Source: Candidatus Dojkabacteria bacterium (GTDB taxonomy: Bacteria > Patescibacteriota > Dojkabacteria > J137). From it: a DNA stretch of 64,000 nt. The stretch is taken from positions 231,772 to 295,771 of the forward strand of contig JBDTVZ010000001.1 in assembly GCA_040006935.1 (NCBI GenBank), written 5' to 3'. Shown here piece by piece: positions 1 through 59,052 of the stretch (its first letter is position 1; each line of letters starts with the position of its first letter). A program made the position numbers and the translations under genes. The notes beneath the pieces are model-generated. The model had not been told where the DNA came from. It was given only the letters and a program-made list of their open reading frames with translations, and ran no database searches.

Positions 1-1752
1 GGAGGGGATGTTATTTCTTTCATAGGCGATTTTGGTGTTGGAGATTATAACAATGATGGCTTGAATGATATAGCAATGAGCTCACAAAATGCTAATTCAT
101 TTGCTGGAGGGGTATGGGTAGTAATGTTTCAAGGTAGCTTGATAACGAATCTAGACTCAGTATTAACTGCTTATCTTGCAAATGATAATTCGACGGACGT
201 TTCAGTAACAAGGCAGACAGCGATTCAGAATATAAGAGTATTCAAAGGTAGCACGCCAATAGCAGAAGTCTCTGTGGACTTCCCAGCAAATTCTTTTGCA
301 GATAAAAATTGGGGCAGTGTTTCTGCTGATACCGATACAACTCTAGGAAAATCCTTTACCAATAGTTTATTCACGGCAGAAGGTGTTAATGGAACAGTAT
401 CACTATATATTCCAATTACATTAAGTACAGCTGGAGGCACAGTAGTAATTTGCCCTAATGCATTTTCATTATCAGAAGTAAGTTTGCTATGTCCAAATAG
501 AGTTGAATTTGCAAATGGACAAACGCAAAATGTTGCAGGCTCATCTGTTACTGTAACTCAAGAAAATATTTTGGGAATAATTTATTGGAAAGCAACTGGG
601 AATACTGCAGTAGGAGGGATATCCAAAGCACCAGTTATAGTTCCTCCTCCAGCAGGAGTTGGTAGTCCAGGTCCTACATCATTCCCAACTTCTTTCCCAA
701 CGAATTCTGGTGGTGGTAGAACTATAGACACCTCAGAAGATTTACCAGTTAATACAGGAAAAATTAATCCAGATATTATAGATATTTCAATGAATATCCT
801 AAAGAACGAAGCAGTGAGAGTTGCTCCCGAAGTATTATTAGGAGCTTTAGCAGTTGCATATATTTTTTCAATAGGTGCAATTACACTTGGAGTTTTTGGA
901 TTAGGTGGAACGCATTTTGGATTAGATTTATTTTTAAATATTCTGAGAATTTTAGGATTATTACCTAAGAAAAGGAAACAGGGTTATGTTTATAGTACAG
1001 ATAGCAAGAATGGTATTTCCCTGGCATTAGTGGATATTATTGATGCACGAAGCAATAGGTATATTTCCTCGATGATTACAGATTTCGATGGTTCTTATTA
1101 CGAACCATATTTAGAAAAAGGTAGTTACTTATTTAAAGCAAGACAAGCTGAGTATAGTTTCCCAACTCAAAATCAAAGGCCTGCGGGGCTTTCCGTTTAT
1201 GATTACTATAAAGGAGAAAATGTTGCAGTAATTACAGATCGAGTAGAGCAAGCAATTGTAGTACCTATGGATCAACATGAACAATGGATGACTTCCCAGC
1301 AAGGTAAAGATTCTACAAATATATTCTGGATTCAAATAATAAATGTATTGAATTGGTTTGTAATACCTTTCTGGGTTTTATCTGTTCTAGTTGCATTAAC
1401 TAACCCAGATACTTTCAATATTATAATTGCAGCATTCTATACAATATTAATTTTATTCAGAGTTAAAGATCTATTAAAAAGACCAAGCCTAAATGGAATA
1501 GTCACTAATAGAATGAATGGAAACCCTGTGCATGGTGCCGTTGTACAACTTAAAGATAGAGATGGTCAATTGATAGGAATTAGTAGAAGTGACAAAAAAG
1601 GAGAATATGAATTTTTTGTCCCAAGAGGAAAATATTCACTATTTATAAGTTCCGATGGATATATTAGTGGAGAAGGTATTGGAAGTTCTATCCGACAAGT
1701 CAATTTAGGCGAAATACATTCGCAAGATTTTAATTTAACTCCAGTTGTTTAA
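1..1752 (+). CDS. Surface or membrane protein, 5' partial, with FG-GAP/VCBS-like repeat, TM segments and a CarboxypepD_reg-like C-terminal domain
   Basis: The reading frame is open from nt 1 (GGDVISFIGDFGVGDYNNDGLNDIAM is a DxNxDG calcium-binding repeat). Several hydrophobic helices occur mid-protein. The C-terminal stretch NGNPVHGAVVQLKDRDGQLIGISRSDKKGEYEF resembles the carboxypeptidase regulatory-like fold. Confidence 0.45.
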   Translation, partial: GGDVISFIGDFGVGDYNNDGLNDIAMSSQNANSFAGGVWVVMFQGSLITNLDSVLTAYLANDNSTDVSVTRQTAIQNIRVFKGSTPIAEVSVDFPANSFADKNWGSVSADTDTTLGKSFTNSLFTAEGVNGTVSLYIPITLSTAGGTVVICPNAFSLSEVSLLCPNRVEFANGQTQNVAGSSVTVTQENILGIIYWKATGNTAVGGISKAPVIVPPPAGVGSPGPTSFPTSFPTNSGGGRTIDTSEDLPVNTGKINPDIIDISMNILKNEAVRVAPEVLLGALAVAYIFSIGAITLGVFGLGGTHFGLDLFLNILRILGLLPKKRKQGYVYSTDSKNGISLALVDIIDARSNRYISSMITDFDGSYYEPYLEKGSYLFKARQAEYSFPTQNQRPAGLSVYDYYKGENVAVITDRVEQAIVVPMDQHEQWMTSQQGKDSTNIFWIQIINVLNWFVIPFWVLSVLVALTNPDTFNIIIAAFYTILILFRVKDLLKRPSLNGIVTNRMNGNPVHGAVVQLKDRDGQLIGISRSDKKGEYEFFVPRGKYSLFISSDGYISGEGIGSSIRQVNLGEIHSQDFNLTPVV

Positions 1753-2932: not shown

Positions 2933-4165
2933 TTGAGATTCTGCATGAATACGAGAATAAATTTAAAAAACCTTATGAAATCACGCAAGCGATTTTTAAT
3001 TTTATTGTTAATAATTGCATTTTTTATTGCAGGTATATTATTTTTAGGTCAAAACAATCCGCAGTTTATTACAAATGAGCAAATAAAAGGCCCAGATGCA
3101 CCAGTAAACCAAAGTGTTAGCGCAGAAGATTTAAATTTAAACTTGGATAAGTCAAGAGTTCTAATGTCTCAGGATGGAAATTCCATGCTAATACTTAAGG
3201 AAATTGATGAAAGAACTTCTTCTTTAACTACAACAACATATAGCCTCACGCTAAATAATAGCAAAGGAGAAATACTCAAAGTAATAGAAGAGAATAACAT
3301 TATAAATTCCAATTTTATTGATAATAATTTTATAGCCTATCAAATTATCGGTGACAATGCAGGAATATATAGATATGATATGTTAAACAATACAAAGCTT
3401 TTAATTCAAGAAACTTCTGACACAGAAGCGTTTAAATACTTTGCCTTTCTAAACTCAGATGAATATTTGCGCATTCAACCAAGAACTGGACAGGTTGGTT
3501 TAGTGAAAATATCTATTGGAGCAGATTTCCCATTAGGAGAGAAAGTGATTCCTACATTAGGAAGTTATTCTTCAACAAGTGCTTATTCTTGGCCAGCAGC
3601 ATCACCAGATAGTAAATATATAACTCTTCTGGATTCAGCTGGAGAAAATGGAACAGAATTAATTGTAACCTTTACTGGTAATCAAAATATCAATAAGCAA
3701 TACTTAAACATACCCATTGGCAACTTCCCTAGCCAATTAGCAAGTAATGACGCACCCATAAGCTGGAGTTCGGATAGCAAAATATTAATATTAGGCTATT
3801 TTGGAATTGCAGTAAATCTTGAGGATAAGTCTATTATTTATAATGCTGGTAGTAACACCTTTGGAATGAAATTATCTCCTGATAATACGTTATTATTAGT
3901 AAATAAAACGGAAGCACCTACAATAGAGAGCTTTGATAACAAACAAGCTTATAATTTACCTCCATATATTTCCGATTTCGGTTGGTTAAGTAATAAGTAT
4001 GCAATTTTAGTAATAGGGCAAAACTTATATTTATATAATATTTCTAATAGTGAACTCACAAAAGTTATCGAAGATATTGCAGATTTCCAGATAGTACATA
4101 CTGATGGGAATGGGAATGCTGTTATAAAAAAAGATTCTACTTTATTAAAAGTTACAACAATATAA
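2933..4165 (+). CDS. Signal-anchored secreted protein with PD40/TolB-like beta-propeller repeats
   Basis: N-terminal hydrophobic segment. Repeated SPDSKYITLL / SSDSKILIL / SPDNTLLL blades. The stop lies 1 nt before the RHS gene start, suggesting translational coupling. Confidence 0.4.
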   Translation: MRFCMNTRINLKNLMKSRKRFLILLLIIAFFIAGILFLGQNNPQFITNEQIKGPDAPVNQSVSAEDLNLNLDKSRVLMSQDGNSMLILKEIDERTSSLTTTTYSLTLNNSKGEILKVIEENNIINSNFIDNNFIAYQIIGDNAGIYRYDMLNNTKLLIQETSDTEAFKYFAFLNSDEYLRIQPRTGQVGLVKISIGADFPLGEKVIPTLGSYSSTSAYSWPAASPDSKYITLLDSAGENGTELIVTFTGNQNINKQYLNIPIGNFPSQLASNDAPISWSSDSKILILGYFGIAVNLEDKSIIYNAGSNTFGMKLSPDNTLLLVNKTEAPTIESFDNKQAYNLPPYISDFGWLSNKYAILVIGQNLYLYNISNSELTKVIEDIADFQIVHTDGNGNAVIKKDSTLLKVTTI

Positions 4166-4166
4166 T

Positions 4167-7100
4167 ATGCTCAAGAAACTACTTATTGTTACATTTTTAT
4201 TTCTATTCTTAACTTCCACAACTGGGAAAGTTGCTGCATTCTCATTCGATCCATTTGATAAATATGGGAAATTTCTACCTTGGCTAACTAATCCATCGTG
4301 GAGAGATAACCAACAAATGGTAATCACTTCTACCCCAAATGGACATCTTTCCAACTTTGGTTATAGAGCAGTTGATTTTGCAAGAAACGGTGGGGACGCA
4401 GCTACGATAGGTATTCCCGTTTTAGCTATTTCTGATGGAGTTGTGGAGAAAGTTGGTAATGATCCTCAAGGATGGGGGAACTATGTAATACTTGATCATC
4501 AGAATGGGTACAAAACAAGATATGCACATTTAGGCCTAGTAGTATTAAATAGTAGTGATGTGGGACATGCGATTAGAAGAGGGCAGGAAATTGGGGAATT
4601 TGGAAATACTGGACGTGTTACTAGTGCAAATTTGGAATTAGAAATGATGAATTCAGCTAATGGTGCAATTGACCCTATTGCAGATGGGAGAGCTTTCCAA
4701 GGATTTATTTCAAATAGTCAAGTGAGTGTATCTTGGCAAAGCCCAATTACTAGCTTTAACCACGATCACGCCTTTGTTAAATCCACAAATGATGTAAGGC
4801 CAAATGATCCCGGGAATCCTTGGGATCCACCTGTTATAGACCCATTAGACAGATATTTACAAAATTATGGATATTTATTCCCAAGTGGAATGGTTGCAGA
4901 ACCTATCAATACTGCATTAGGATCTTTTTTACATAGAAGCAATGATTTAGAATTTAATAATCCTTCTGGACCAGAATTTAAATTTGAGAGAGTTTCTAAT
5001 TCTCCAGATCAATTTATAGGATTTAATGGTTTAGGTTGGACAAATACATTCAATATTAAAGTTCTTGCGAACCCAGATAATACTTTCTCTGTGAAATTTG
5101 AAGATGGTAGAGGAGAAAGTTTCAAAGAAGTCGATACTGACCCAAACACATACACAAGAGATTTTCAGAAACTAACTGCAGAAAGTTTAGGAACATTAGT
5201 AAGACTTGATGCAAGTAATAATTATAGATTTCAATATACATCGGGAGATAAAACAATATATCTATTCAATTCGGATAAAGGTTCTTTAGCTTGGGGAAAA
5301 ATTGAAAAAATTACTTCAGTTGATGGAAAATCTATTAATTTTATTTACGATTCAAACGGGAATTTACAAAAAGCATCTGATTCATTTGGAAATTGGATGA
5401 CATTATCTTTTGGGCAAGATAAATTACTAGACACTTTAACAGGTTCTGATGGCTCTGTAATAAATTATTCATATAACTTTGATGGTCGATTAACTTCAGT
5501 TACAAAAAATAACGGTGGTGCATGGACTTACGCATATGATAGTCAAGGACGAATTACAACTATCATAGATGCAGAAGGTAAAACAGTTGTTGCAAAAAAT
5601 ACTTACGATAGTGCAGGAAGAGTAATTGAACAAATAGATGGAAATGGTGGAACAACAAAATTAGAATATACCTCCGACGCTTCCAATAATAAGTCTACAA
5701 AAATTACAGATCCATTAGGAAATGTCACAGTTCAGCTTCATAATGCAAATAACTATTTAACTGAAGAAGATAGAGCAGATGGGACTTCGATTAAGAAAGA
5801 ATACAACGCACAAGGTAAAGTAACAAAAGAAACAAATGAGTCAGCAGTCGCAACATTATATGAGTATGATGCTAATGGCAATACTACAAAGGAAACTCAT
5901 GCTGATGGTTATATAAAAGAAACTAAATATAGCTCACAAAATCTTCCAATAGAAATAAAAGATCCATCTGGAATTATTTCGATGGAATACAATAATGCTG
6001 GAAGAAAAACAAAAGTAACTGATCAGTTAGGTTCTGTATCTACTTATCTATATGATGCAAATAATAATTTAATAAAAGAAATTAATAATAATGGTAATGC
6101 AAAAGTATATGCATACAATGCAAATGGACACTTAGTTGAACAAAGTGATTTTTCAACTTCCTCTGATTTGAAATATGAGTATGATGCTCGAGGAAACCAA
6201 ACTAAAGTAACAGATGCTTTGAATAATGTTTCTACTTTTACATATGACGGAAGGAATCATTTAGTAAAGAGTACAGATAGTAGAGGAAGTGTGAAGACTT
6301 ATGCATACGATAGAAATGGCAACCTTGCATCCGAAACGGACGAAGCTGGTGCTGTCAAAACTTATAGAAGTGATAATAATGAAAATATTGTTGAAATTGC
6401 TTATCCAAGCCAGTACTTACAATATCCTACAAAACAAGTTGGAATATTAAATAATAGCAATACTTTAATTGATGAAAAATTTAATACTAACTTATCAAGG
6501 TGGGATGTTTCAAATAGTAATGTGCAAATTATTGGGAAAACTTTATTAACTAAAAATAAAACAACAGACTCTAAAATATATTCAGTGTGGTTAGAACCAA
6601 AGCTTGATCAAGAGTATTGGTTATCTGCTTTGTATAAAACTGCCAATGCTACTGCTCCTCAATTTAATATTGAAATGTATGATGCAAACTTTAATTTTGT
6701 AAGGAATGCAAAACCACTGGGATTAACTTGGAATGGTGGTACTTTTGACGGTTGGGATAACGAATACCGAAATGCATTCTACTTCCCAGAGGATTTGTGG
6801 AAAGGAAGTCAGGTTTCAATTATCAAATATGCTCGTTTAATTATCACTCTACCGGCTGGAAGTAATGGAACTGAAGGTACAACTATTTTGGATGATATTT
6901 ATTTAGGGCATTTGAATAGACCAATTGCAAAAATTATTAATTACAAAGGAGGTTGGTTAGGTGAGAAAATGATTTTAGATGCAACAGGTAGTTGGGATTT
7001 TGAAACTAATATTAAGAAAGCATATTGGACAGAAATAACTGGACCTGAAGTTTCAATTAATGAGGAATCCAACAAACTTATGAGTAGTTTTGTAATTCCA

Positions 7101-10100
7101 GCGCTGGATAAAGATACTGCATTTACTTTCAGATTAATTGTAGAAGATGGGAATGGAGTTAGAAGTATTGCCAGAACAAAAACCCTTGTTATTAAAAAGA
7201 ATACATTACTCCCAACAGAACTTAATAATGTAAGTAATGAAGTTCAGGATGATTTTATTGATCCGAACGACCCAACTTCACAAATTGATACGAGCTCCCC
7301 ACCAATTCTTGTAAATGTTACAGAGCAATTTGAATACGACAAAAATAATAATCGAATAAAGTATAAAGATAAAAATGGAAATATTACTAGGTATACATAC
7401 AACAATCGAAATGAATTAATTAAAACCGATAGTTATGGAGCAGGAGTTTCAATACTAAGCTCACAAATTTTTGCCTATGATAAAGTTGGAAATATTATTA
7501 AGAAAACTGATTTAACTTCTCCTGGAATTAACCAAGATGGAAACATAACTAGATTTATTTACGATTCTTTAAACAGAATTACAGAAACAATAAATCCTGA
7601 TGGAAAATCTCAAAAAATTAAATATGACATTCTTGGAAGAGTTATCGAAAAAACGGATTTAGAAGGAAATGTAACTAAATACGAATACGATGCATTAGGA
7701 AGAAATACTAAAATGATTGATTCTAGCAATGCAGCTACCATATATAGTTACGATAGAGTAGGCAATATGATAAAAAAAATTGATACTCTTGGAAACGCAA
7801 CTATTTATGCATACGATTCTTCAGGAAGAACTAGTGGGGTAAGAAATGCTATAGGAGATGTTGCTAATTATGTTTACGACTCAGTTGGAAATTTAATTGG
7901 TCAGAGAAATTTTGCAGGAGAATTAACAATTTTATCTTACGATGGGAATAATAATCTAATTGGGCAAACAAATACATTAAATTTAAAAACAAATTTTGAA
8001 TACGATTCTCGAAATAATTTAACAAAAATTACAGATCCAAATGGAGATTATACAACCTATAATTACGATGCAATGGGAAATAAAGTTAGAGAAGTAGATG
8101 CTTTAGGACAACAAAAAAATCTGGTGTACGATAATAATGGAAACCTAATTCAATTTACTGGAGAAAATGGCGAAAGTATTAAGACAAGTTATGATGGCCT
8201 TAATAGAAAAATTGCAGAAGTGGATCAGAAAGGGAATACTGTAAAATATCAATACGATTCACTAGGTAATGTTATAAGCCAGACAGATAAAAATGGGAAT
8301 GGGACAAGTTATAAATACGATAAGAATAGAAACGTAATCGAAATTGTAAATGCACTTGGTGATAGTCAACGAATTGAATATAGTCCAAATGGAAACATTT
8401 TAAAGACTATCGATCCGCTAGGGAATGCTACAACATACAAATATAATAATTTAAATGAAAATATTGAAACAATAAATCCAATTGGTGGATCAATTAAATC
8501 TACTTTTGATTCATTAGGTCGATTGACATCAAAAACGGATTTACAAAATAAAGCTACAACATATGCTTACGATTCATTAGGAAATGTAATAAAAATTACA
8601 GATAGAATAGGGAACGAAACTTCAATTGAGTACGACAAAGTTGGGAAAGTTATAAAAGTAACAAAACCAAATGGGGCAATATCTCAAAGTGAATACGACT
8701 CAATTGGAAGACTTGCAAAAGATATTAATGCGGAAAATGGAGTTACAACTTACGGTTACGACAGTGCTTCAAACTTAATCTCTACAACATTGCCAAATAA
8801 TATTACAACTAGCTTTGGATATGATTCATTAAATAGAAAAGTCCATGAAAGTGTTGCAGGAGTTTCTAAGAGTAGTGAGTACGATTCAATTGGAAGACTT
8901 ATTAAAAGTATAGATGCTAATGGGAATCAAACTAGTTATCAATATGATTCCGTAAATAATATTGCAAAAGTTACAAATCCAAGAGGCTTTAGTACTAATT
9001 TTGAATACGACAATAATGGAAATTTAACTAAAGTCACAAATGCAAAGGGCACTGCTACAACTTTTGAATATAATGGATTAAATCTTCAAACAAAAACTAC
9101 ACAAGCAGATGGAACAACTCTATCGCAAGTTTATGATAAAGATGGAAGAGTAGTGAAAAGTATTGATCCAAAAGGAAATTCTATAGGGAATTCTTACGAT
9201 GCTCTTGGAAGAATTGTAAGTAATAAAAATCAGTTAGGAAATTCAACAAGTTATGAATTTGATGCAAATGGTAATGTAGTTAAAAAAACTGACGCGGAAG
9301 GTAACCTTACAAAGTATGCATATGATAGTTTAGATAGATTAGTCAAAGTTACAGATGCTTTAAATCACGATACTAACTATGAATATGATAATGTTGGAAA
9401 TTTAACTAAGGAGATTAATGCCAATAATAAATCGACTATAAGAAATTATAATAAATTGAATCAGTTGAAGGAGGAAACAGATCCTCTTGGAAATAAAGTT
9501 AGTTATAGCTACGATTTAGCGGGAGATTTAGTTTCTAAAGTTAAAGCCGATGGAACTGTAGTAGGTTACTCATATGATGCTTTAAATAGATTAAACACTA
9601 TTGGATTTAGTGATTCTAATCAAAATGTAAATTATGAGTATGACAATGCTGGAAATATTACAAAAATACAAAAAGGTAATAGTGTAGTTTCATTTATTTA
9701 TGATGAGAATTCAAATCTAATTTCTGCAACACAAGATGGAAATTCTACAGTTTCTTATAGTTACGATGAACTTAATAACCAGTCTCAAATTAGGTATCCT
9801 AACCAAACAATTGCTGAATTTGACTATACGGCTTTGAATCAAGTCAAAGATTTGAGCATTAAAAAGAATTCTGCAATTTCTACAACTCAATTTGGTTACG
9901 ATGCCAACGGGAATTTAACTTCTCAGGTTAATCCAAATGGGTCCCAAATTTCTAAAGATTATGATAATACAAATAGATTAACTAAAGTTTCTGATATTTC
10001 AATTACTCACGATAGCGAGGGCGTGACAAACACATCTAATATTGCAGAGTTTAATTATAGTTTAGATAAAAACGGAAATAAGTTGAGCGAAGGATTTAAG

Positions 10101-12500
10101 TTAGGCGATGGAGCTGCTGCATTGGTCGGCACAAAAGATTATAACTACGATAGCTTACAAAGATTAACAAAAGCTACTGTAACTCATAATTCAGTCGGAC
10201 AAAATGTTGTTGATTCAATTGAAGAATTTGGCTATGACAATATTGGAAATAGAGTAAATCTCAAAACAACAAATGTGTCATCTCCAGCGGAGTCGAGGGA
10301 TGCGGAATTAAATTATTCTTACAACGATGCAAATCAATTAATTGAAGATTCTGCTAATAATTACTCTTATGATGCAAATGGAAATAGAATTAGCAAAACA
10401 GGTAAAGATGGTAATAAAAGTATTCAATACTCTTACGATCTTGCAGATAACTTAACGAATGTTCAAAGCAATATTAGCGGAAAAAATTATAATATAAGTT
10501 ATAACTACGATGGGTTAAATCGAAGAGTTGAGAAAAGTATTAATAGTACTAATAGCAATTTCTATAGTGATGTCTCTTATATTAAATATGCTTATCTTGG
10601 AAAATCCTTTGATACTATTTCTCAGGATGTAAATGGAACTATTCAAAACTTTTACAGAGCTGGAATTAGTAATATTGAGCCTACTTTAATTGCGAGTGAT
10701 TTAATAAGTCCAGCGGTTAAAGTAACAGATCCTGTTGTGCAAAATGATGAACCAGAAGTGCCAGCTTCGTTCCCAGTGTCATATCCTGGAGATGAGGTTC
10801 CAAGTTCATATCCAGTTTCTTATCCTGATGATTCAGTCACTCCAGAGCAAACTCCTGTTGAAGATACTTCTGTAAATTTAAGCTATTACTTTAGAGATGG
10901 ATTAGATTCTGTTGTGGGTGTTTCGAATAAGAATTCTACTGTAGATTATTTAAACGAATATTCATCTTATGGAAAAATTAAAGACTCTTCTAAATTAGAT
11001 GTGTTTAATTCAAAAACATATTCTGGACAAGATTATGATGTTGAAAGTGAAATGTCTTATTATGGTTCGAGATATTATGATTCTGAAATTGGGAGTTGGA
11101 ATAAAATGGATAGTTATCAAGGAAATACATCTAATCCAAGTTCGAGAAATAAATATGCATTTGTAGAAAATAATCCAGTGAATAGTGTGGATGTGGATGG
11201 ATTTGCTGGCGAACAGATGACAGGTGATCAAGCAATTACTTATCTAAATGATCAAGTAACACAAACAAATACATTTATTAGCCAAGCAGATAAAGCTGCG
11301 GTAGATGGACAGAATAGAATAAACGATATTAATAATAGTTTAGCTACTTTATCTGCAGACGCTACTTCTAAATACTGGTCAGCACACCATGCATTAGAAG
11401 ATGAGTATACATATGTTTTGATGAATGGAGTTGTTGGAAGATTACAAGCTAGAGGCTACTCGTTGAACTATGGTCAGGTTTACAATTATCTTGGCAATAA
11501 AATTACTGAGAAATCGTATATTTATGCTGCCAAACAACAACAATATTACGCCGCTGCGCAGTTGTATGAATCCTCTGTACAAGAGAGAGATTATTTGCAG
11601 AATGATTATCTACCTCAAATTTCATCTGCTAAGATAGAAGCTTTAAAATATATTGATGATACGAATTCATTAAAAAGTGATGTTCAAAATCAAATAGATC
11701 AGATCAAAGCTGATGCTCAAAATAGAGCAAACGCCGCAGAAACTCAGAGAAATATTTCCCTGTTATTTGCAGGTGCGGGGGCAGTTATAGGTGGAACTAT
11801 TTGTGCAGTAGCGACTGCTGGTATTGCAACAGCTGGATGTGTGGCTGGTGGTATAGCATTAGTAGCTGGCGTAGGGTCTGCTGCAAACTCAGAAATAAAT
11901 AGACAAGATGCTATGTATACTGTGAAGACAGGTACATTCATGGACTCTAAAGCTAATTTCTTTAATAATTTAGGATTTGATAAAACAACTTCAAGTTCAC
12001 TAAGTAATGCAATAAATGTTGGTGGGAATGTAGCATTTGTGGTTTCTGGAGTAGCAGCTGTTGCGACAGGTGTAATAGCAGGTGTGGCTTTATTGGCACC
12101 AGTTATAGCTGGTGTAGGAACTACCACTGCTGCTACTGCCGCCACAGAAGCTACCGCAACTGGTGGAACTATCGCCTTAGGATTAGATGAACTAGGAAGT
12201 AGCTTAGATAAATTTGCAGAAGAAGTACAAGCAATCACTTATAAAGCCTTTGTACCCGCAGAGGCGCTTGCTACCTCTGACTGGAAACCCTATGTCTTGG
12301 AGAAATTAGCGGATGTTTCCACTAAGATCAACTTTAATCTAACAGGTATAAATAGTATTATGAATAGTGTTAGTAGAGCATCAGCAGGAATGGGAGGAGC
12401 TACTGATTGGGAATTATTGCAAATATACAATAACCCACAATTCTGGGATAGAGTAACATTTTTTCAGGATGGAGTGATAGTACCAAACCCTTTTAATTAA
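4167..12500 (+). CDS. RHS/YD-repeat polymorphic toxin with signal peptide, degenerate M23 domain, YD repeats, RHS core and glycine-zipper C-terminal toxin domain
   Basis: 2777 aa with an N-terminal signal peptide. LytM-like block at aa ~55-165. Dozens of YxYDxxGN repeats span aa ~330-2190. RHS-associated core (YYGSRYYDSEIGSW...NKYAFVENNPVNSVDVDGF) ends at aa 2346. A distinct 431-aa C-terminal domain follows. Confidence 0.85.
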   Translation: MLKKLLIVTFLFLFLTSTTGKVAAFSFDPFDKYGKFLPWLTNPSWRDNQQMVITSTPNGHLSNFGYRAVDFARNGGDAATIGIPVLAISDGVVEKVGNDPQGWGNYVILDHQNGYKTRYAHLGLVVLNSSDVGHAIRRGQEIGEFGNTGRVTSANLELEMMNSANGAIDPIADGRAFQGFISNSQVSVSWQSPITSFNHDHAFVKSTNDVRPNDPGNPWDPPVIDPLDRYLQNYGYLFPSGMVAEPINTALGSFLHRSNDLEFNNPSGPEFKFERVSNSPDQFIGFNGLGWTNTFNIKVLANPDNTFSVKFEDGRGESFKEVDTDPNTYTRDFQKLTAESLGTLVRLDASNNYRFQYTSGDKTIYLFNSDKGSLAWGKIEKITSVDGKSINFIYDSNGNLQKASDSFGNWMTLSFGQDKLLDTLTGSDGSVINYSYNFDGRLTSVTKNNGGAWTYAYDSQGRITTIIDAEGKTVVAKNTYDSAGRVIEQIDGNGGTTKLEYTSDASNNKSTKITDPLGNVTVQLHNANNYLTEEDRADGTSIKKEYNAQGKVTKETNESAVATLYEYDANGNTTKETHADGYIKETKYSSQNLPIEIKDPSGIISMEYNNAGRKTKVTDQLGSVSTYLYDANNNLIKEINNNGNAKVYAYNANGHLVEQSDFSTSSDLKYEYDARGNQTKVTDALNNVSTFTYDGRNHLVKSTDSRGSVKTYAYDRNGNLASETDEAGAVKTYRSDNNENIVEIAYPSQYLQYPTKQVGILNNSNTLIDEKFNTNLSRWDVSNSNVQIIGKTLLTKNKTTDSKIYSVWLEPKLDQEYWLSALYKTANATAPQFNIEMYDANFNFVRNAKPLGLTWNGGTFDGWDNEYRNAFYFPEDLWKGSQVSIIKYARLIITLPAGSNGTEGTTILDDIYLGHLNRPIAKIINYKGGWLGEKMILDATGSWDFETNIKKAYWTEITGPEVSINEESNKLMSSFVIPALDKDTAFTFRLIVEDGNGVRSIARTKTLVIKKNTLLPTELNNVSNEVQDDFIDPNDPTSQIDTSSPPILVNVTEQFEYDKNNNRIKYKDKNGNITRYTYNNRNELIKTDSYGAGVSILSSQIFAYDKVGNIIKKTDLTSPGINQDGNITRFIYDSLNRITETINPDGKSQKIKYDILGRVIEKTDLEGNVTKYEYDALGRNTKMIDSSNAATIYSYDRVGNMIKKIDTLGNATIYAYDSSGRTSGVRNAIGDVANYVYDSVGNLIGQRNFAGELTILSYDGNNNLIGQTNTLNLKTNFEYDSRNNLTKITDPNGDYTTYNYDAMGNKVREVDALGQQKNLVYDNNGNLIQFTGENGESIKTSYDGLNRKIAEVDQKGNTVKYQYDSLGNVISQTDKNGNGTSYKYDKNRNVIEIVNALGDSQRIEYSPNGNILKTIDPLGNATTYKYNNLNENIETINPIGGSIKSTFDSLGRLTSKTDLQNKATTYAYDSLGNVIKITDRIGNETSIEYDKVGKVIKVTKPNGAISQSEYDSIGRLAKDINAENGVTTYGYDSASNLISTTLPNNITTSFGYDSLNRKVHESVAGVSKSSEYDSIGRLIKSIDANGNQTSYQYDSVNNIAKVTNPRGFSTNFEYDNNGNLTKVTNAKGTATTFEYNGLNLQTKTTQADGTTLSQVYDKDGRVVKSIDPKGNSIGNSYDALGRIVSNKNQLGNSTSYEFDANGNVVKKTDAEGNLTKYAYDSLDRLVKVTDALNHDTNYEYDNVGNLTKEINANNKSTIRNYNKLNQLKEETDPLGNKVSYSYDLAGDLVSKVKADGTVVGYSYDALNRLNTIGFSDSNQNVNYEYDNAGNITKIQKGNSVVSFIYDENSNLISATQDGNSTVSYSYDELNNQSQIRYPNQTIAEFDYTALNQVKDLSIKKNSAISTTQFGYDANGNLTSQVNPNGSQISKDYDNTNRLTKVSDISITHDSEGVTNTSNIAEFNYSLDKNGNKLSEGFKLGDGAAALVGTKDYNYDSLQRLTKATVTHNSVGQNVVDSIEEFGYDNIGNRVNLKTTNVSSPAESRDAELNYSYNDANQLIEDSANNYSYDANGNRISKTGKDGNKSIQYSYDLADNLTNVQSNISGKNYNISYNYDGLNRRVEKSINSTNSNFYSDVSYIKYAYLGKSFDTISQDVNGTIQNFYRAGISNIEPTLIASDLISPAVKVTDPVVQNDEPEVPASFPVSYPGDEVPSSYPVSYPDDSVTPEQTPVEDTSVNLSYYFRDGLDSVVGVSNKNSTVDYLNEYSSYGKIKDSSKLDVFNSKTYSGQDYDVESEMSYYGSRYYDSEIGSWNKMDSYQGNTSNPSSRNKYAFVENNPVNSVDVDGFAGEQMTGDQAITYLNDQVTQTNTFISQADKAAVDGQNRINDINNSLATLSADATSKYWSAHHALEDEYTYVLMNGVVGRLQARGYSLNYGQVYNYLGNKITEKSYIYAAKQQQYYAAAQLYESSVQERDYLQNDYLPQISSAKIEALKYIDDTNSLKSDVQNQIDQIKADAQNRANAAETQRNISLLFAGAGAVIGGTICAVATAGIATAGCVAGGIALVAGVGSAANSEINRQDAMYTVKTGTFMDSKANFFNNLGFDKTTSSSLSNAINVGGNVAFVVSGVAAVATGVIAGVALLAPVIAGVGTTTAATAATEATATGGTIALGLDELGSSLDKFAEEVQAITYKAFVPAEALATSDWKPYVLEKLADVSTKINFNLTGINSIMNSVSRASAGMGGATDWELLQIYNNPQFWDRVTFFQDGVIVPNPFN
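4329..4661 (+). other. Degenerate (probably non-catalytic) LytM/M23 peptidase-like domain within the RHS protein
   Basis: YRAVDF sits where HxxxD is expected. NLELEM sits where HxH is expected. The central YAHL and the glycine-rich core are retained. Confidence 0.5.
6921..7200 (+). other. Ig/PKD-like domain inserted within the YD-repeat region
   Basis: The stretch IAKIINYKGGWLGEKMILDATGSWDFE...TAFTFRLIVEDGNGVRS is non-YD and beta-sandwich-like. Confidence 0.35.
11205..12497 (+). other. C-terminal toxin domain of the RHS protein with two Gly/Ala-rich glycine-zipper hydrophobic segments (putative pore-former)
   Basis: It lies directly after the DVDGF end of the RHS core. Hydrophobic segments: AGAGAVIGGTICAVATAGIATAGCVAGGIALVAGVG and VAFVVSGVAAVATGVIAGVALLAPVIAGVG. 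Confidence 0.5.
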
Positions 12501-12517
12501 ATTTTAACTACTAACTT

Positions 12518-12910
12518 ATGATTATAAAGAGAAAATTTAGCTTAGTAGGATGGAGTCCAACTTTCGGGAGGATTTTATACAGAAGTCCTGGCGATCATAA
12601 AGACACTATTAATCTGGATATTGTATTTATTGACACAAAATATATAAATGCACCTACGCAGTTTGAACTTGAATCCATCAAAGAGGTGACACAATTAGAT
12701 GAAGGTATGAATTTTTTATCAAATAATAAGATAGCGGCTCTGGAACAAGACTTAAAGGTTTTTGAGCTTTCCACTAAGACTCAAAAATTCTATATTGTTG
12801 CCTCATTTATCTCAATGTTTGAAAATAAATTGGAGCTTCTGGAACTACCTTTTGAGAAAGATAAGACATCTATAAAGTCTTACAAGCCAATAGACACTAA
12901 AGGTTTATGA
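12518..12910 (+). CDS. Hypothetical protein, candidate immunity protein for the RHS C-terminal toxin
   Basis: 130 aa, beginning 18 nt after the RHS stop on the same strand. Position is the only evidence. Confidence 0.3.
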   Translation: MIIKRKFSLVGWSPTFGRILYRSPGDHKDTINLDIVFIDTKYINAPTQFELESIKEVTQLDEGMNFLSNNKIAALEQDLKVFELSTKTQKFYIVASFISMFENKLELLELPFEKDKTSIKSYKPIDTKGL

Positions 12911-13048
12911 TTTATTTTCTTTTAGGGTGGCTGCACCAGAACTAATTAAATTTAAAAATTTATGCCTTCTAGAAGAGTTCCTAAAGAACAAAGTATTAGT
13001 GTCGATATCGTTTTACATCACGCATTATATATCCCTTAATATTATTTT

Positions 13049-13669
13049 ATGTTTCTAATTTCAAATTCAGTTACAAAAATAATTTCAATCGTAAGTTCAG
13101 AACCTACGATTCAAATGCCTGTCAGGTTTAGTATTAAATACATAGATAATACTAATTATAATAAACTTCTAATATTCTATATTGAATTTGATGGTAAGTA
13201 CTTAGAATTAGAGTTTAATTATAAAGAAGGTGATTCTCAAGGAATTCTAATTAGTTGTGAGTTGATTAATTATCATGAAAAGTTTCAAATAATTGATGGG
13301 ATTTACACTCTTAGTGAAGATATTTCAAAGGATATACCACTTTTCGATTTAAATAACGGATTTCAAATTGAACCCACAAAAAACCCTTATATAGTAAAGA
13401 AAAGTACTCACGATTTCGGATTAATAAAATACGAGAATGCTATCCAAATTAATTTTTCAACTTCTAAATCTAATAAAAAATTTACTATTGGAGAGAAGAT
13501 CCTCATAGGTTTAGATACAGATAATAATTTAAATGAAATTGTTATACTGAATTTATCCGATATCGAAGAAGATTTAATCAATCTCAAGTTAAGTGATCAA
13601 GAGAATAAAAAGTATGACCTATCTTCTGAAACTTTGAAGTATTTAAAAGAAACAAGGAATTTATCTTAA
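13049..13669 (+). CDS. Hypothetical protein, possible second or orphan immunity protein
   Basis: 206-aa soluble, acidic protein downstream in the same orientation. Confidence 0.25.
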   Translation: MFLISNSVTKIISIVSSEPTIQMPVRFSIKYIDNTNYNKLLIFYIEFDGKYLELEFNYKEGDSQGILISCELINYHEKFQIIDGIYTLSEDISKDIPLFDLNNGFQIEPTKNPYIVKKSTHDFGLIKYENAIQINFSTSKSNKKFTIGEKILIGLDTDNNLNEIVILNLSDIEEDLINLKLSDQENKKYDLSSETLKYLKETRNLS

Positions 13670-13691
13670 TAATATTTATTAAATATTTATA

Positions 13692-14808: not shown

Positions 14809-15762
14809 TTACATCTCACCATAGCCTCCAGCAAAAAGGCTAGAGGATATCGCATCAAAAGCATTAGTCACTAAAAGTTCTAACTGTTTTCTCTCAAAGC
14901 TAAATACGCTTGCTCCCTTTGGCATTTTTACACTAATTCTCTCATTTGGTTGGGCTATTCTTTTTGGTACATCTACTTGTCCTAACTTAATATTTCTCAT
15001 AATGGGAAGTACCCAGCCTTCTTCATCGGAAGTCTTGCAGCTAACGCCTATCACATAATTTGCATCGCACTCTTTTGCTTCTTCAACTCCATAACCTGAG
15101 ATTAAGTCTCCATCTGTAAAATATTCTGGTCCAATATTAATTGCTGGTGCAATTAAGGGAAAAGATGAGGAGGCTACCATTCCTGCAACAAAATCATGAA
15201 CGGTTTCAGGTTTAAAAATACGTTTCTTTCTTTTTTTCATATCAGTTAGTTGAAACCTGAGATTTGCGCGTAATTTAAATCCAATTCTTTTTTGTATTTC
15301 CTCTAAATTTGTAGGTGTATTTAGAAAAGGAATATCTTTCGAATAATATTGCGCAAAGGCCTGTCGAAATATTGATTCTGCATCTATTAAAGTCAAGTTG
15401 GGAATATGCCTTAATAAATACCAATAATAATGTTCCGGCGATATTAATGATTGATGAGAAAAAATAGCACTGTGGCTAAATAGGTTATGCAATTTGAAAT
15501 CAGCTACTGATTCTAAGATTTCCTTCCAACTATATCCAAGTGAGTAGAGTGTAAAAGGTATAGTCGCCGATGAAGATGCAATTATTAATCCTGGAGTTAT
15601 TTTCTGTTCTTCTAGCCACTTTATAATTCCTATCGATGCACCAAAAGCTAGGCTCAAACCACCTTTTATACTAATACATAAATCAGGTACTTGTCTTACA
15701 TTTTCCCAGTTTTCAAATGAATACTTTGCTATTAAAGGTTCTGGCTGATTTTGATCTAACAT
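14809..15762 (-). CDS. Hypothetical protein, possibly a divergent patatin-like fold
   Basis: KGGLSLAFGASIGIIKWLEE resembles the patatin Gly-rich block. IASSSATI sits where GxSxG is expected. A DGD occurs near the C-terminus. All are weak matches. Confidence 0.25.
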   Translation of the reverse strand: MLDQNQPEPLIAKYSFENWENVRQVPDLCISIKGGLSLAFGASIGIIKWLEEQKITPGLIIASSSATIPFTLYSLGYSWKEILESVADFKLHNLFSHSAIFSHQSLISPEHYYWYLLRHIPNLTLIDAESIFRQAFAQYYSKDIPFLNTPTNLEEIQKRIGFKLRANLRFQLTDMKKRKKRIFKPETVHDFVAGMVASSSFPLIAPAINIGPEYFTDGDLISGYGVEEAKECDANYVIGVSCKTSDEEGWVLPIMRNIKLGQVDVPKRIAQPNERISVKMPKGASVFSFERKQLELLVTNAFDAISSSLFAGGYGEM

Positions 15763-26993: not shown

Positions 26994-29900
26994 TTACTCA
27001 ATCCACCAATCCAACCAAACACTTGCACCTCCACTTAATTCTCGATACTCAACTTTAATGGTGTGAAGACCAGCAGTCATATTTAATGTTGCATCATCTT
27101 CCTCATATCCATGAGGTCCCCAATGATCTATTGCGAGAGTTCCGTCAATCCAGACTCTTACCCCATCATCGCTACCTTCCATAAATGTATATGTGTCTGC
27201 ATCAAAGTAGAATTGTCCCTCATATCGAGCAGAGAAGTTGTTACTACTAATTCCACTGATTGGTGAGTTCGATCCCCAATCATAATCAACATTCGATGTG
27301 TACATAGACATTGTTGGTGTTCCTGTTAATGTTGCATTATTAAAGTATTTTGCACAGAACCTTCCAACGTCCACACAATTTGATGTTTGAGTTTGAGGAA
27401 GTGTCCAAGATAATCCTGCTGTAGCATCTCCTGTTCCATCGTAATATTCCATTTTGATAGCATGAGCTCCTGCTGTTAATGTAACTGTCGAAGAATTCAT
27501 AGTTGTTGTATGCGATGTCCAATTATTTATTTTTTGAACATTATCTACCCATAACCTAACTCCATTATCTGATGTTGTAACGAACGTATAACTTCCAGCA
27601 GTTGGGAAATTAATATTTCCAGTCCATCTTGCAGAGAAATTATTACTATTTACTGATGCATCGGGACTTCCTCCCCACCAGAAATTAGAAATTGTATCTT
27701 CACATCTTGTTAGAACTGGAGAGCCAGTTAAACCTGTATTGTTATAGTATTGCGCAGTAAATGTACAACTCGCATTGACTTTGAATAGAGCAGATTTGCT
27801 TGCTGTTGCTCCGTGTGAATCTGTTGCTATGAATTCTATATTCTGTTGACCAGTCCAGTTTACTGGTGTTGTTATTGTGACAACATTGCTAGCATTGATA
27901 CTTACAGTTAGCGGTCCATTATTTGCATAGCTCCAAGTGATTGGATCTGCAATATCTGGGTCACTTCCATAATTATCTAAATCGAATGTTGTAAAGCTTT
28001 GCCCTAATACGATTGTTTGTCCTGGAATTGTATTTACAACTGGATCATTATTATCAACAGGTTCAAAGTATTGCCATACTGATGCTCCTCCTCCTATTTC
28101 TCTGTACTCACCTTTTACTTGATGAACACCAGCAGATACGTTTATAGTTTTATAATCCTCTTGGTACCCATGTGGACCCCAAGAGTCTATTACTGCTTGA
28201 TTATCTAGCCAAACTCTTACTCCATCATCAGATGCTGTCCCAAATTCATAAGTTTCTCCTGTGAAAGTAAAGTTTCCTCTCCATCTTAACGAAAATGCGT
28301 CATCGTTAGTTATTCCATGTCCAGGACCCCATTGCTGCCAGTCTGCATCCACACCATTTTGTACTGCTACAAATACTGGACTTCCGGATAGAGTAGAATT
28401 ATTGAAATATTCTACACAGTAGAGATCACTTGGAATAGTATTGCAATTCCCTCCGTACTGATACCATACTAAAGCTACGACAGCATCACCCGTCGCTTCG
28501 TAATATTCCACTTTTACACTATGAATTCCTGAAGTCAATGTTATGTCATAATCATTATTTTCCCATGAGTGACTTGTCCAGTTATCAATTCTTAGTGTGT
28601 TATCTACCCAAACCCTAATTCCATTATCTGAGTTTGTATGGAAAGTGTAATTGCCAGCCGCAAAGTTTATATTCCCTTGGTATCTTGCAGAGAAATTATC
28701 TGCATTAACAGATGGATCCGGACTATCACCATCCCACCAGAAGTTTTGAACAAGACTTTCGCACCTTGTAAGAGCTGGGGTTCCAGTTAAGGTTTGATTG
28801 TTAAAGTATTGTGCAGTGAATTGTCCTGCACATGCGTCCACCACATTATTTACTTTGAATAGCGCAGAACTACTTGCAGTAGCAGCGGAACTATCTGTTG
28901 CTGTAAATGTAACCGATTGTTCGCCCACCCAGTTTGCAGGAGTTGCTACTGTAACTATATTGTTTGAATCGATATTTACAGTTAAAGGTCCGTTATTGCT
29001 ATAGCTCCAAGTTATTGAATCTGCAATATCTGGATCTGTGCCATAAGTATCTAAATCAAATGTTGTAAAATTTTGTCCTAGGGTAACTGTCTGGCTTGGG
29101 ATTTGTGTTACTACCGGTGTACTATTTGCAACTGGAACAAAATATTGCTCTATGATTGCATTTCCACCAATTTCTCGGAATTCACCTTTTACTTTGTGAG
29201 TACCAGAATTTACTCTCATAGTCTTAGCAGTTTCCTGATAACCATGAGGTCCCCAGTCATCTATTACTAATTGATTATCTAACCAAATTCTTGCTCCATC
29301 GTCTGAAATTTCATCAAATTTATATGTTCCAGTGTTAAAACTGAAGTTGCCCGTCCACCTTATAGAGAAACTATCATCATTAGTAATTCCATGTCCTGGT
29401 CCCCATTGTCCCCAGTCAGAATCTACCACTCGTTTTGTAGTTACAAATACAGGGCTTCCGGATAAATCAGAGTTATTGAAGAATTCTATACAATATAGAT
29501 TTGTTGGAACTGAATTACAATTTCCTCCATATTGATACCATGTTAAAGATGCTACTGCATCACCTGTTGCTTCGTAATACTCAACTTTTATATTATGAGT
29601 TCCTGCAGATAAAGTGATGTCGTAATCATTGTTTTCCCAAGAGTGACTTGTCCAATTATCAATTCCTAGAGCTCCATCAATCCAAACTCTAATTCCATTG
29701 TCTGAGTTTGTATGGAATGTGTAATTACCAGCAGCAAAGTTTATATTTCCTATCCATCTTGTCGAAAAATTATCTGCATTTACTGTTGCATCAGGACTTG
29801 TTGTTCCCCACCAGAAATTATCGATAACATCTTCACACCTTGTAAGAACCGGTGCATTAGTTAAAGTTTGATTGTTAAAGTATTGTGCAGTGAATTGCCC

Positions 29901-56657: not shown

Positions 56658-56800
56658 AAAATATTTATAAAAGACTATTTCTAACCAATCATATAGTATT
56701 TTGAAAATATGGGCAATGGAGATTAGAATGACAGAGAGATTTTATTTTATGAATTTGAAGTCCTGCTTTTCGGGAGAACGCTCGGCTTGTTTTTATATTA

Positions 56801-56872
56801 TGGATTTGGAGGGATTCGAACCCTCGGCCAATCACTTAAGAGGCGACTGCTCTACCACTGAGCTACAAATCC
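56801..56872 (-). tRNA. tRNA-Lys (anticodon CUU)
   Basis: Cloverleaf GGATTTG/CAAATCC acceptor, GCTC/GAGC D-stem, anticodon loop CTCTTAA, T-arm GAGGG-TTCGAAT-CCCTC. 72 nt, no encoded CCA. Confidence 0.8.
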
Positions 56873-56965
56873 ATTTCTGATTGAACGCTTTTATTGCTCG
56901 AAATATAAGTACATAAAGCGTAGTGAATGATATCATTTGAGTCGAAATATGTCCAGATTGAACGT

Positions 56966-58978: not shown

Positions 58979-59052
58979 GCGCCCGTAGCTCAATTGGATA
59001 GAGCACTTGTCTTCGGAACAAGATGTTGGGGGTTCGAGTCCCTCCGGGCGTA
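58979..59052 (+). tRNA. tRNA-Arg (anticodon UCG)
   Basis: GCGCCCG acceptor (G1-U72), GCTC/GAGC D-stem, anticodon stem CTTGT/ACAAG with loop CTTCGGA, T-arm GGGGG-TTCGAGT-CCCTC. Confidence 0.8.

Follow-up and report, generated by a model that had tools for sequence, protein, structure and literature searches.

What might a peptidase fold be doing at the head of an Rhs toxin when most of its canonical histidines are missing? The question arises from a stretch of 64,000 nucleotides of DNA from a Candidatus Dojkabacteria bacterium (the window, below, is this whole stretch), in which an earlier note had described a degenerate LytM/M23 domain at the N-terminus of an Rhs protein and had proposed that it probably binds peptidoglycan or protein instead of cutting it and serves to target or anchor the toxin. 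All features discussed here lie on the forward strand unless the reverse strand is named.

The Rhs protein and its N-terminal fold

The gene at 4167..12500 encodes 2777 amino acids, in which Pfam recognises RHS_repeat in 33 stretches (PF05593, E=9e-203) and otherwise M23 and DUF6531 only, while NCBIfam matches YD_repeat (TIGR01643) and Rhs_assc_core (TIGR03696). The protein begins with a putative Sec-type signal peptide (aa 1-24, 4167..4238; MLKKLLIVTFLFLFLTSTTGKVAA, followed by FSF), whose n-, h- and c-regions were recognised by inspection of the translation; in the alignment of the family described below, all members have an equivalent hydrophobic N-terminus that ends in A or S and is followed by DPFxKYGKWLPW. 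Next come a family-specific segment (aa 25-60, 4239..4346) with the motif DPFDKYGKxLPW and a conserved His60 in TPNxH, for which there was no match among solved M23 structures or Pfam families, the M23 domain itself (aa ~61-170, 4347..4676), and a conserved linker (aa 171-244, 4677..4898; DGRxFQG ... W.SP..F ... NPWDPPVIDPLDRYLxNYGY) that has no Pfam match. The linker leads into DUF6531 (4899..5123; PF20148, E=2.7e-6, 28.1 bits against a cut-off of 24.1), the N-terminal plug of the Rhs cocoon, whose role as a lid has been described (PMC12704120). The Rhs repeat-associated core (aa 2265-2345, 10959..11201; TIGR03696, E=2.2e-14) ends in NNPVNSVDVDGF, and the C-terminal region beyond it (11202..12497) comprises a pre-toxin segment shared by the family, Gly/Ala-rich hydrophobic helices and a unique toxin tip that matches no Pfam family. 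The predicted product is a Sec-exported, WapA-like Rhs polymorphic toxin; at its N-terminus Pfam finds no CWB, LysM, SH3 or PGB domain, and the M23 module occupies that slot.

That the N-terminal domain has the M23/LytM fold is indicated alike by profiles, pairwise comparisons and a predicted structure. PF01551 (Peptidase_M23) matches aa 78-169 with E=1.4e-17 in the whole protein and 2.9e-19 in the N-terminal 278 aa, at 64-69.5 bits against a gathering score of 28.7, and hhalign aligns the family to canonical M23 domains with a probability of 99.75%. In a phmmer search against PDB sequences the first match is ShyA (3e-14), followed by Csd1/Csd2, DipM, zoocin A, lysostaphin, LytM and EnvC, such that the similarity to the active ShyA is higher than that to EnvC or DipM; in NCBIfam there is a weak resemblance to DipM and to ActS, which activates amidases. 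The AF2 model reaches a pLDDT of ~95 over aa ~78-160, and Foldseek gives 61 matches to this model at E<=0.001; the solved structures listed are M23 domains except 5gt1 (CbpA), with active and degenerate neighbours mixed in rank and showing no separation. The place given to the domain in the earlier note, 4329-4661 or aa 55-165 of the open reading frame, is the right one, PF01551, phmmer and the AF2 model with Foldseek bear out its assignment to LytM/M23, and the RHS repeats, DUF6531 and TIGR03696 do the same for the Rhs identity of the protein.

The positions of the M23 active site

The replacement is clearest at the second motif. N155-L156-E157 (4629..4637) stands opposite H-L-H in the phmmer, MAFFT, hhalign and family-profile hmmsearch alignments, with Asn155 in place of the catalytic His and Glu157 in place of the zinc-ligand His, and the earlier note was correct in equating NLELEM with HLHFE. 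It had also equated YRAVDF with HxxxD, and here the alignments diverge: MAFFT, phmmer, hhalign and two family-profile searches against PDB sequences give three different registers. The MAFFT register places Y66-R-A-V-D70 (4362..4376) at the motif, with Tyr for the His ligand, and agrees with conservation in the family, since G65, Y66 and F71 are invariant among close members and position 70 is Asp or, in three members, Asn. By contrast, phmmer pairs R73-N-G-G-D77 (4383..4397) with HNGTD, placing Arg at the His, and hhalign pairs GGD with GxD and lets the His column fall in a gap; R73-NGG-D77 is not conserved in P0068, P0071 and P0072. AF2 places a strand at Y66-D70 with low pLDDT (<50). When a profile was built from the ~54 N-terminal residues of the family, it found no counterpart in any solved M23 ahead of the 'TLGxPV' strand. 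From sequence the register is ambiguous, with Y66-RAV-D70 a plausible one of the three.

Under all three registers (Y66, R73 or a gap) the His of HxxxD is missing, and an alignment with true His at the ligand positions was given by none of phmmer, MAFFT, hhalign and hmmsearch. The claim that the zinc ligands are replaced holds for the two His ligands but not for the Asp, as the window protein has one available under either register (D70 or D77), although it is not conserved in the family. Of the four positions that hold His in canonical M23 domains, three have lost it and one has kept it: H121 of YAHL (4527..4529) lies ~30 aa before HxH and does not vary, either within the family or among canonical M23 domains; a catalytic role for this extra His in active M23 enzymes has been described (PMC9662197). 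As aligned, this is an M23 domain without both His zinc ligands and without the first, catalytic His of HxH, which at the level of sequence agrees with the likeness to known degenerate LytM domains that had been proposed for it, and we infer that it is non-catalytic, most likely not an enzyme. The other M23 domain that the earlier note had compared with it, in a giant open reading frame on the reverse strand (26994..37973; PF01551, E=2.3e-10), does keep both motifs: it has HHGAD (aa 437-441), RVAHL and CHAHM (aa 527-531), and HHGAD and CHAHM align to HxxxD and HxH.

The conserved residues H60, Y66, D/N70, H121, N155 and E157 might still form a rewired site that binds metal or catalyses, in which case an unusual hydrolase would cut the wall during delivery. 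At the HxH positions, Asn and Glu are strictly conserved and not random, the close members all share H121 and the new His60, and Asp/Glu/His triads are able to bind zinc. However, the Asn at position 70 in three members and a first-motif region too diverged to align with any solved M23 both speak against such a site, and the M23 family is defined by H(x)nD and HxH, with members lacking them being degenerate, non-enzymatic folds (PMC9662197). We consider a rewired site quite improbable.

A rare family and its conserved neighbour

When 1.84 billion protein representatives were searched exhaustively, no more than eight relatives with the N-terminal module on an Rhs protein came up, and the family as used here is these eight (P0067-P0072, P0078 and P0080) together with the window protein, nine representatives in all. 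It was found by the exhaustive search only: a word-index homologue search, which misses this family, returned generic M23 enzymes alone for the N-terminal 330 aa and nothing at E<=1e-15 for the family alignment. No member was found among 185,579 GTDB species genomes; of two scans of genome contigs, the first matched nothing and the second only generic M23 cores at <=47% identity, with no full-module locus, and a scan of metagenome contigs with linker-specific patterns recovered the P0071 locus only. The exact sequences of the window's Rhs protein and of its ABC-F protein are absent from the contig index. The family is rare, and in the literature searched on degenerate LytM, on Rhs polymorphic toxins and on Rhs proteins of CPR/Patescibacteria there is no description of an M23-Rhs fusion.

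Within the family, the HxH positions read N-[LI]-E in P0067-P0072 as well as the window protein, D-I-Y in P0078 and H-L-Q in P0080. The six N-[LI]-E relatives are 47-61% identical to the window protein over the N-terminal query, and region by region their identity to it is 44-60% in the M23 core, 41-64% in the linker (31-33% for the outliers P0078 and P0080), 32-43% in the main repeat block, RHS-2, and 15-28% in the toxin tip. In six of the eight pairwise comparisons, identity is higher in the M23 core than in either block of RHS repeats, and in every comparison core and linker exceed the pre-toxin region and the toxin tip. These alignments indicate that the degenerate state is conserved and that the module is under purifying selection, and for this reason we do not take it for a decaying relic. 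A vestige of an ancestral active M23 lysin, functionless today, would account for the lost catalytic residues, but it fits poorly with a module better conserved than RHS-2 and the tip in all six close relatives and with the same substitutions being kept across members diverged to ~45% identity, and we regard it as very improbable; the related reading as a decaying pseudodomain was rejected on the same difference in conservation from RHS-2 and the tip.

At the other end of the protein, the predicted C-terminal toxin varies between otherwise homologous members. Toxin tips of the relatives match AHH (1e-13) and Colicin_E5 (4e-22), with WHH- and DUF4258-like matches below the cut-off, and P0072 carries a PT-TG pre-toxin domain. 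The 130-aa open reading frame that follows the toxin gene in the window (12518..12910) is a putative immunity gene by its position; it has no match among Pfam or NCBIfam families, and relatives have Imm11, DUF4272 or SMI1_KNR4 genes at this place.

On the upstream side lies a gene of 410 aa (2933..4165), here called the partner, with a predicted N-terminal TM helix and all-beta ectodomain, whose stop codon ends 1 nt before the Rhs ATG. Homologues of the partner (BLASTP E from 1e-112 to 1e-31) are found immediately upstream of the Rhs gene in all eight family loci with readable upstream DNA, including that of P0078, the most divergent, and at several of these junctions the two genes are 1 nt apart or overlap by 4 nt; for the outlier P0080, the 177 nt available upstream contain no coding sequence. 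A single-sequence AF2 model shows a helix at 18-40 and then ~26 short strands, with a pLDDT of only 41, and there are weak matches to WD40 and other propellers (E 0.004-0.06 for PDB profiles, 0.02-0.04 for Pfam WD40/DUF5050) that are suggestive only. We take the partner to be a TM-anchored, all-beta, probably propeller-like protein. This conserved membrane-anchored gene is absent from the earlier note. Scanning 2600-14300 for promoters and terminators does not define an operon, since promoter-like sites were fewer than in shuffled sequence and the forward strand had no terminator. The synteny of the partner is with the whole Rhs gene and not specifically with the degenerate LytM domain.

What the M23 head may bind

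Our preferred reading, which we hold tentatively, is that aa ~25-244 form a non-catalytic docking handle that retains the toxin on the surface of its producer, the ligand most likely being the ectodomain of the partner. The module, built on the M23/LytM fold, would precede the DUF6531 lid and stand outside the Rhs cocoon, and after cleavage of the signal peptide would keep the ~300 kDa toxin on the monoderm-like surface of the CPR producer by binding a ligand in the former M23 substrate groove. This ligand would be the co-encoded, membrane-anchored, all-beta protein, with peptidoglycan as an alternative or additional one. A monoderm envelope is part of the general background on CPR bacteria, to which Dojkabacteria belong; here we infer the envelope type of the host, as we do the retention at the surface and the identity of the ligand. 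Because the partner is conserved and abuts the Rhs gene in every readable locus, a protein partner is at least as likely a ligand as peptidoglycan, and the choice of the partner has precedents in SpoIIQ-SpoIIIAH, EnvC-FtsX/AmiB, Csd1-Csd2, DipM with its autolysin, and the N-terminal region of S. suis WapA with its accessory protein. More generally, degenerate M23 folds serve as protein-interaction hubs (PMC9662197; for DipM, PMC10336132), Sec-exported polymorphic toxins are anchored to the producer by N-terminal wall- or adhesion-binding domains (PMC3482391), and the NCWB region of WapA interacts with the co-encoded SrtB (PMC12704120). It is also conceivable that the partner acts in export, in folding or on the pre-toxin TM region and makes no contact with the degenerate LytM domain.

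Alternatively, the domain may be a peptidoglycan-binding anchor or targeting module only, and the role of the partner, in export or assembly, unrelated to it. The dead groove would then bind stem peptides or cross-links, either in the wall of the producer, giving a WapA-like retention, or in that of the target, giving adhesion. In other Sec-exported polymorphic toxins the slot filled by this domain holds LysM, PGB, CWB or SH3 (PMC3482391). The nearest sequence relatives are DD-endopeptidases of the ShyA/MepM type, whose groove binds cross-linked stem peptides, and the groove-lining motifs DHxNGY and YxHL are conserved in the family. However, wall binding in the characterised degenerate LytM proteins is generally ascribed to separate LysM or other domains, and an anchor to peptidoglycan leaves the strict co-occurrence with the partner unexplained. 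The degenerate LytM domains characterised in the literature consulted work through protein contacts (PMC9662197, PMC10336132), and we think a role confined to the wall possible but doubtful.

A further possibility is that the domain activates or hijacks autolysins in the manner of EnvC, NlpD, ActS or DipM, de-repressing an amidase or autolysin of the producer or the target such that a local opening of the wall lets the cocoon or the toxin cross. Degenerate LytM factors canonically act in this way (PMC9662197, PMC10336132), the weak NCBIfam similarity is to two of them, DipM and ActS, how WapA-type toxins of >300 kDa get across the wall is, according to PMC12704120, not known, and the window also encodes the giant surface protein with S8 and intact M23 domains. 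Against these stand the family loci, across which no amidase or autolysin is conserved, the Pfam architecture of the Rhs protein, from which the coiled-coil or LysM accessory domains typical of such factors are absent, and the greater similarity to the active ShyA than to EnvC or DipM, and we judge autolysin activation decidedly unlikely. With EnvC, NlpD, ActS and DipM the Rhs head shares an M23 fold without a complete zinc site, and by analogy with their retained groove, which binds instead of catalysing, the same is proposed for it. They are, however, separate periplasmic proteins that regulate division, carry coiled-coil or LysM domains and activate amidases or lytic transglycosylases, whereas the domain described here heads a 2777-aa toxin and has its own substitution pattern (Y or –, N, E) and a family-specific N-terminal extension.

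For docking, SpoIIQ-SpoIIIAH and Csd1-Csd2 are analogues, in that a degenerate M23 domain is purely a protein-docking surface for a separately encoded partner, as the Rhs head is proposed to be. The partners differ, being a YscJ-like ring protein of the sporulation channel in the first case and an active M23 protein involved in cell shape in the second, and we saw no sequence relationship between the SpoIIIAH or Csd partners and the Rhs partner. As a whole, the protein resembles WapA-type toxins (B. subtilis WapA; S. suis WapA-CT1, PMC12704120) in its signal peptide, an N-terminal region outside the cocoon with a proposed surface or wall association, the DUF6531 lid, RHS repeats, TIGR03696 core and polymorphic C-terminal toxin, and a downstream immunity gene, here putative. 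S. suis WapA is encoded together with an accessory protein that interacts with the toxin's N-terminal region (PMC12704120), and here an accessory gene abuts the Rhs gene; however, the wall-binding region is of CWB type there and has an M23 fold here, the accessory protein is a sortase there and a TM-anchored all-beta protein here, and the host here is a CPR bacterium, an ABC-F protein of the window being 100% identical to a Dojkabacteria MAG protein at NCBI. The same logic of a conserved N-terminal delivery domain with an adjacent accessory gene (PAAR/VgrG, EagR), a variable toxin and an immunity gene is found in T6SS Rhs effectors (PMC12704120 and general knowledge), but no PAAR, VgrG or T6SS genes are present here, and export would rely on a Sec signal peptide.

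A published study (PMC12704120) describes as unresolved how Sec-exported WapA-type Rhs toxins of >300 kDa are retained at the producer's envelope and how they traverse it. The TM-anchored partner, the Rhs toxin with its degenerate LytM head and the putative immunity gene make up a compact and conserved three-part cassette whose surface-handling parts are separable. As a long shot, the dead M23 head could be an EnvC-like 'key' that de-represses an autolysin of the target or host, or else a rewired H60/D70/H121/E157 site, with the membrane propeller of the partner as launch platform. If the key were real, a CPR bacterium would turn its victim's own wall-cleaving enzymes into passage-openers for a 300 kDa Rhs cocoon, a new Sec-based route across the cell wall for Rhs toxins that is independent of T6SS and T7SS. 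The family also documents Rhs polymorphic toxins with nuclease and RNase tips in the small genomes of Dojkabacteria-like CPR bacteria, which depend for their way of life on contact with other cells. A docking handle of the kind we tentatively favour would add interbacterial toxins to cell division, shape and sporulation as settings in which degenerate LytM domains are used.

Fold and lost ligands of the M23 domain

The Rhs toxin ORF of the window (4167..12500, + strand) encodes 2777 aa that begin with a Sec-type signal peptide, read by inspection as MLKKLLIVTFLFLFLTSTTGKVAA|FSF, and continue with Peptidase_M23 (aa 78-169) and DUF6531 (aa 245-319), 33 RHS-repeat stretches (all Pfam), YD repeats, and the Rhs-associated core TIGR03696 (aa 2265-2345; both NCBIfam). 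The protein has the features of both the M23 fold and Rhs polymorphic toxins. The M23 domain is genuine and well past chance: Pfam gives E=1.4e-17 for the whole protein and 2.9e-19 for its first 278 aa, scoring 64-69.5 bits where the gathering score is 28.7, and among PDB sequences the best match is ShyA (3e-14), with a V. cholerae zinc peptidase, Csd1/Csd2, StM23, DipM, zoocin A, lysostaphin, LytM, and EnvC also at the top. When aa 25-245 were modeled with AF2, pLDDT was ~95 across aa ~78-160, and the model's Foldseek matches are M23 folds, both active and degenerate. An earlier note, made by eye, had put such a domain at 4329-4661 (aa 55-165), which corresponds to the M23 domain.

In active M23 enzymes, H(x)nD supplies two zinc ligands, its His and its Asp, and the second His of HxH is the third; the other His of HxH is catalytic, as is a further His ~30 residues before that motif (PMC9662197). 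The HxH position is occupied by N155-L-E157 (nt 4629-4637) according to phmmer, MAFFT, family-profile hmmsearch, and hhalign (profile-profile, family against canonical M23, probability 99.75%), in agreement with the earlier reading of NLELEM for HLHFE; the upstream catalytic His is kept as H121 in YAHL. The companion reading, YRAVDF for HxxxD, is reproduced by MAFFT (Y66-RAV-D70, then a six-residue insertion) but not by phmmer, which pairs R73-NGG-D77 with HNGTD, or by hhalign, which puts NFGYR on the upstream sGFGxR motif, leaves the His column opposite a gap, and matches GGD to GxD. AF2 pLDDT is <50 over this stretch, and a profile restricted to the first ~54 positions of the family aligned to no solved M23. 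Although the methods disagree, family conservation favors the Y66-RAV-D70 register, with G65, Y66, and F71 invariant in the close family, whereas RNGGD gives way to RFLPE, RFLES, or RFHSS in three of the members. Whichever register is taken, no alignment places a His at H(x)nD, so the refuting outcome named in the earlier note, true His residues at the ligand positions, did not arise. An Asp is present in both registers, and therefore replacement is demonstrable for the two His ligands only, not for every Zn ligand as first claimed.

The protein departs from active M23 enzymes at both motifs. Of its three zinc ligands two are lost, as is one catalytic His, and since this loss is conserved across the family, the domain is very probably non-catalytic in the classical M23 sense; a rewired active site seems very unlikely.

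A second M23 domain in the window (E=2.3e-10), in a giant ORF at 26994..37973 (- strand, 3659 aa), does keep both motifs, as had been noted: HHGAD (aa 437-441, nt 36651-36665), RVAHL, and CHAHM (aa 527-531, nt 36381-36395) align to the M23 motifs. This ORF runs from a signal-anchor-like N-terminus and fervidolysin-like prodomain through an S8 subtilase and the intact M23 to long repeat modules, among them Gly-rich stretches and repeated ~200-aa units, and its G+C (36-40%) is above the window's ~31-34%.

Relatives and host

A word-indexed protein search with the Rhs N-terminus returned generic M23 enzymes only; relatives emerged when all 1.84 billion cluster representatives were searched exhaustively by HMMER with a 306-aa N-terminal query. 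Six proteins of 2571-3141 aa (P0067-P0072) cover the whole query at 47-61% identity (E 1e-60 to 1e-114), and the same search gave two outliers, P0078 (3414 aa) and P0080 (2800 aa). All eight are metagenomic, one on a 1.14-Mb contig; the full N-terminal module was absent from the GTDB species-representative genomes searched, and one metagenome scan recovered an already known member and none further. Common to all members are the signal peptide, DPFxKYGKWLPW, a conserved His in TPNxH, G-Y-x3-[DN]-F, DHxNGY, and YxH[LM]. The HxH position reads N-[LI]-E in the window protein and all six close relatives, D-I-Y in P0078, and H-L-Q, with the first His kept, in P0080.

With the window protein as reference, identity to the six close relatives is 44-60% in the M23 core, 41-64% in the linker after it, 50-58% in DUF6531, 42-49% in the first RHS repeat block (RHS-1), 32-43% in the main block (RHS-2), 26-38% in the pre-toxin region, and 15-28% in the C-terminal tip. 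The M23 core is about as conserved as DUF6531 in these relatives, and in five of them its identity exceeds that of both repeat blocks; the outliers are lower and ordered differently (M23 core 30% and main RHS block 36% in P0078, 45% and 29% in P0080). This conservation, together with substitutions at the lost catalytic positions that are fixed in the six close relatives, argues that the degenerate domain is a functional module and no relic. A vestigial head, which the lost residues alone would allow, is highly improbable given that the module is conserved in the family.

The window (G+C 30-40%) encodes an ABC-F protein 100% identical to an NCBI protein of a 'Candidatus Dojkabacteria bacterium' MAG, the next matches being Dojkabacteria or Patescibacteria. 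In CPR bacteria the envelope is Gram-positive-like and lacks an outer membrane; if this holds for the host, a Sec-exported protein ends at the wall or surface. The P0080 contig (L086 1..177 and 9389..13580) has a G+C of 44.5%, and proteins encoded next to P0080 carry SLH domains; P0080 therefore comes from a different, S-layer-bearing lineage. Rfam found tRNA-Lys(CTT) (56800..56873, -) and tRNA-Arg(TCG) (58979..59052, +) in the window and no other family at its gathering score.

Variable regions and downstream genes

Tips vary among members, as expected of polymorphic toxins: AHH in P0069 (1e-13), Colicin_E5 in P0070 (4e-22), and WHH-like and DUF4258-like matches, slightly under cut-off, in two other relatives. 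The window tip matched no family, and the C-terminal region of P0072 contains PT-TG. Genes downstream of the relatives' Rhs genes include Imm11, DUF4272, and SMI1_KNR4. In the window protein, the post-core region (11202..12497, aa 2346-2777) consists of a family-shared pre-toxin segment, Gly/Ala-rich hydrophobic helices such as LLFAGAGAVIGGTICAVATAGIATAGCVAGGIALVAGVG, and the variable tip. It weakly matches the phi29 gp9 tail-knob C-terminal domain, which holds a membrane-penetrating loop (E=0.006, possibly compositional). The Rhs core ends in NNPVNSVDVDGF (11169..11204, aa 2335-2346), with DVDGF against the usual cleavage motif DPxGL; relatives have DLWGF, DMYGF, DLYGF, DVDGY, or DRYGY.

The RHS array is split by a non-RHS insertion at 6447..7346 (aa ~761-1060) that is only 2-27% identical among members and has a weak K319L-like PKD match under cut-off (E=2.4e-4); P0078 has FG-GAP and Laminin_G_3 domains in its place. 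Possibly this insertion decorates the outside of the cocoon and serves as a variable receptor-binding part. A DUF2283-like ORF two genes 3' of the Rhs gene (13049..13669, +; E=0.003) has a faintly matching counterpart at the same place in the P0070 locus (L004 15332..15745), which suggests local synteny reaching past the toxin cassette. Other envelope- or surface-related genes by the cassette encode a protein with a C-terminal CarboxypepD_reg/prealbumin-like domain (61..1752, +; 563 aa) and a patatin-like phospholipase (14809..15762, -).

Upstream partner and proposed role of the head

A conserved gene that was missing from the earlier note's picture of the locus lies directly upstream (2933..4165, +; 410 aa), and a single nucleotide separates its stop codon from the Rhs ATG. 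Homologues (BLASTP E-values 1e-112 to 1e-31) occupy the same position in all eight loci with available upstream DNA, the most divergent member included; in the other loci the two genes either overlap by 4 nt or stand 3 to ~470 nt apart. Upstream of the P0080 gene are 177 non-coding nt before the contig ends, a short tandem repeat that translates as SQLPAHS-like units. Apart from weak hits to WD40/DUF5050 (E 0.02-0.04), the partner protein has no Pfam match. It has an N-terminal TM helix, the rest being predicted all-beta with ~26 short strands (single-sequence AF2, a poor model at pLDDT 41); a five-homologue profile matched only WD40 propellers in the PDB (E 0.004-0.06). These weak matches point to a probable membrane-anchored beta-propeller.

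DUF6531 serves as the lid of the Rhs cocoon (PMC12704120), so a module N-terminal to it would lie outside. In Sec-exported polymorphic toxins this slot is usually filled by wall-binding or adhesion domains (LysM, PGB, CWB, or SH3), which are thought to tether the toxin to its producer (PMC3482391); neither M23 nor LytM appears in that survey. By this precedent the head could bind peptidoglycan, the main rival and a possible but rather unlikely one, while the dead groove of known degenerate M23 domains binds proteins: amidases for EnvC and NlpD, several autolysins for DipM, Csd1 for Csd2, and SpoIIIAH for SpoIIQ (PMC9662197, PMC10336132). Activation of an autolysin by the head, after the example of EnvC, NlpD, and DipM, is unlikely; EnvC/NlpD-type factors share its degenerate M23 fold, but they are stand-alone proteins with accessory domains, whereas the head lacks those domains and is part of a larger protein. 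In S. suis, a co-encoded accessory protein needed for antagonism interacts with the N-terminal wall-binding region of WapA (PMC12704120). Taken together, the toxin-slot position, protein binding by dead grooves, and the WapA precedent make a non-catalytic docking or retention module outside the cocoon the most likely role for the head; the co-encoded, membrane-anchored partner would be its likeliest ligand, an assignment that we make tentatively.

The Rhs protein resembles WapA-type toxins but with a different head, and the literature searched described neither an Rhs toxin that carries an M23 or dLytM domain nor such Rhs toxins from CPR bacteria. We rate the dLytM head and its accessory gene as a new N-terminal module and accessory gene among Sec-dependent Rhs toxins, and the toxin head as a new context for degenerate LytM domains. 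While a dLytM-headed Rhs toxin may hold little surprise for a specialist, the family gives a practicable way into the question of how Sec-exported Rhs toxins of very large size are kept at the envelope and get through it.
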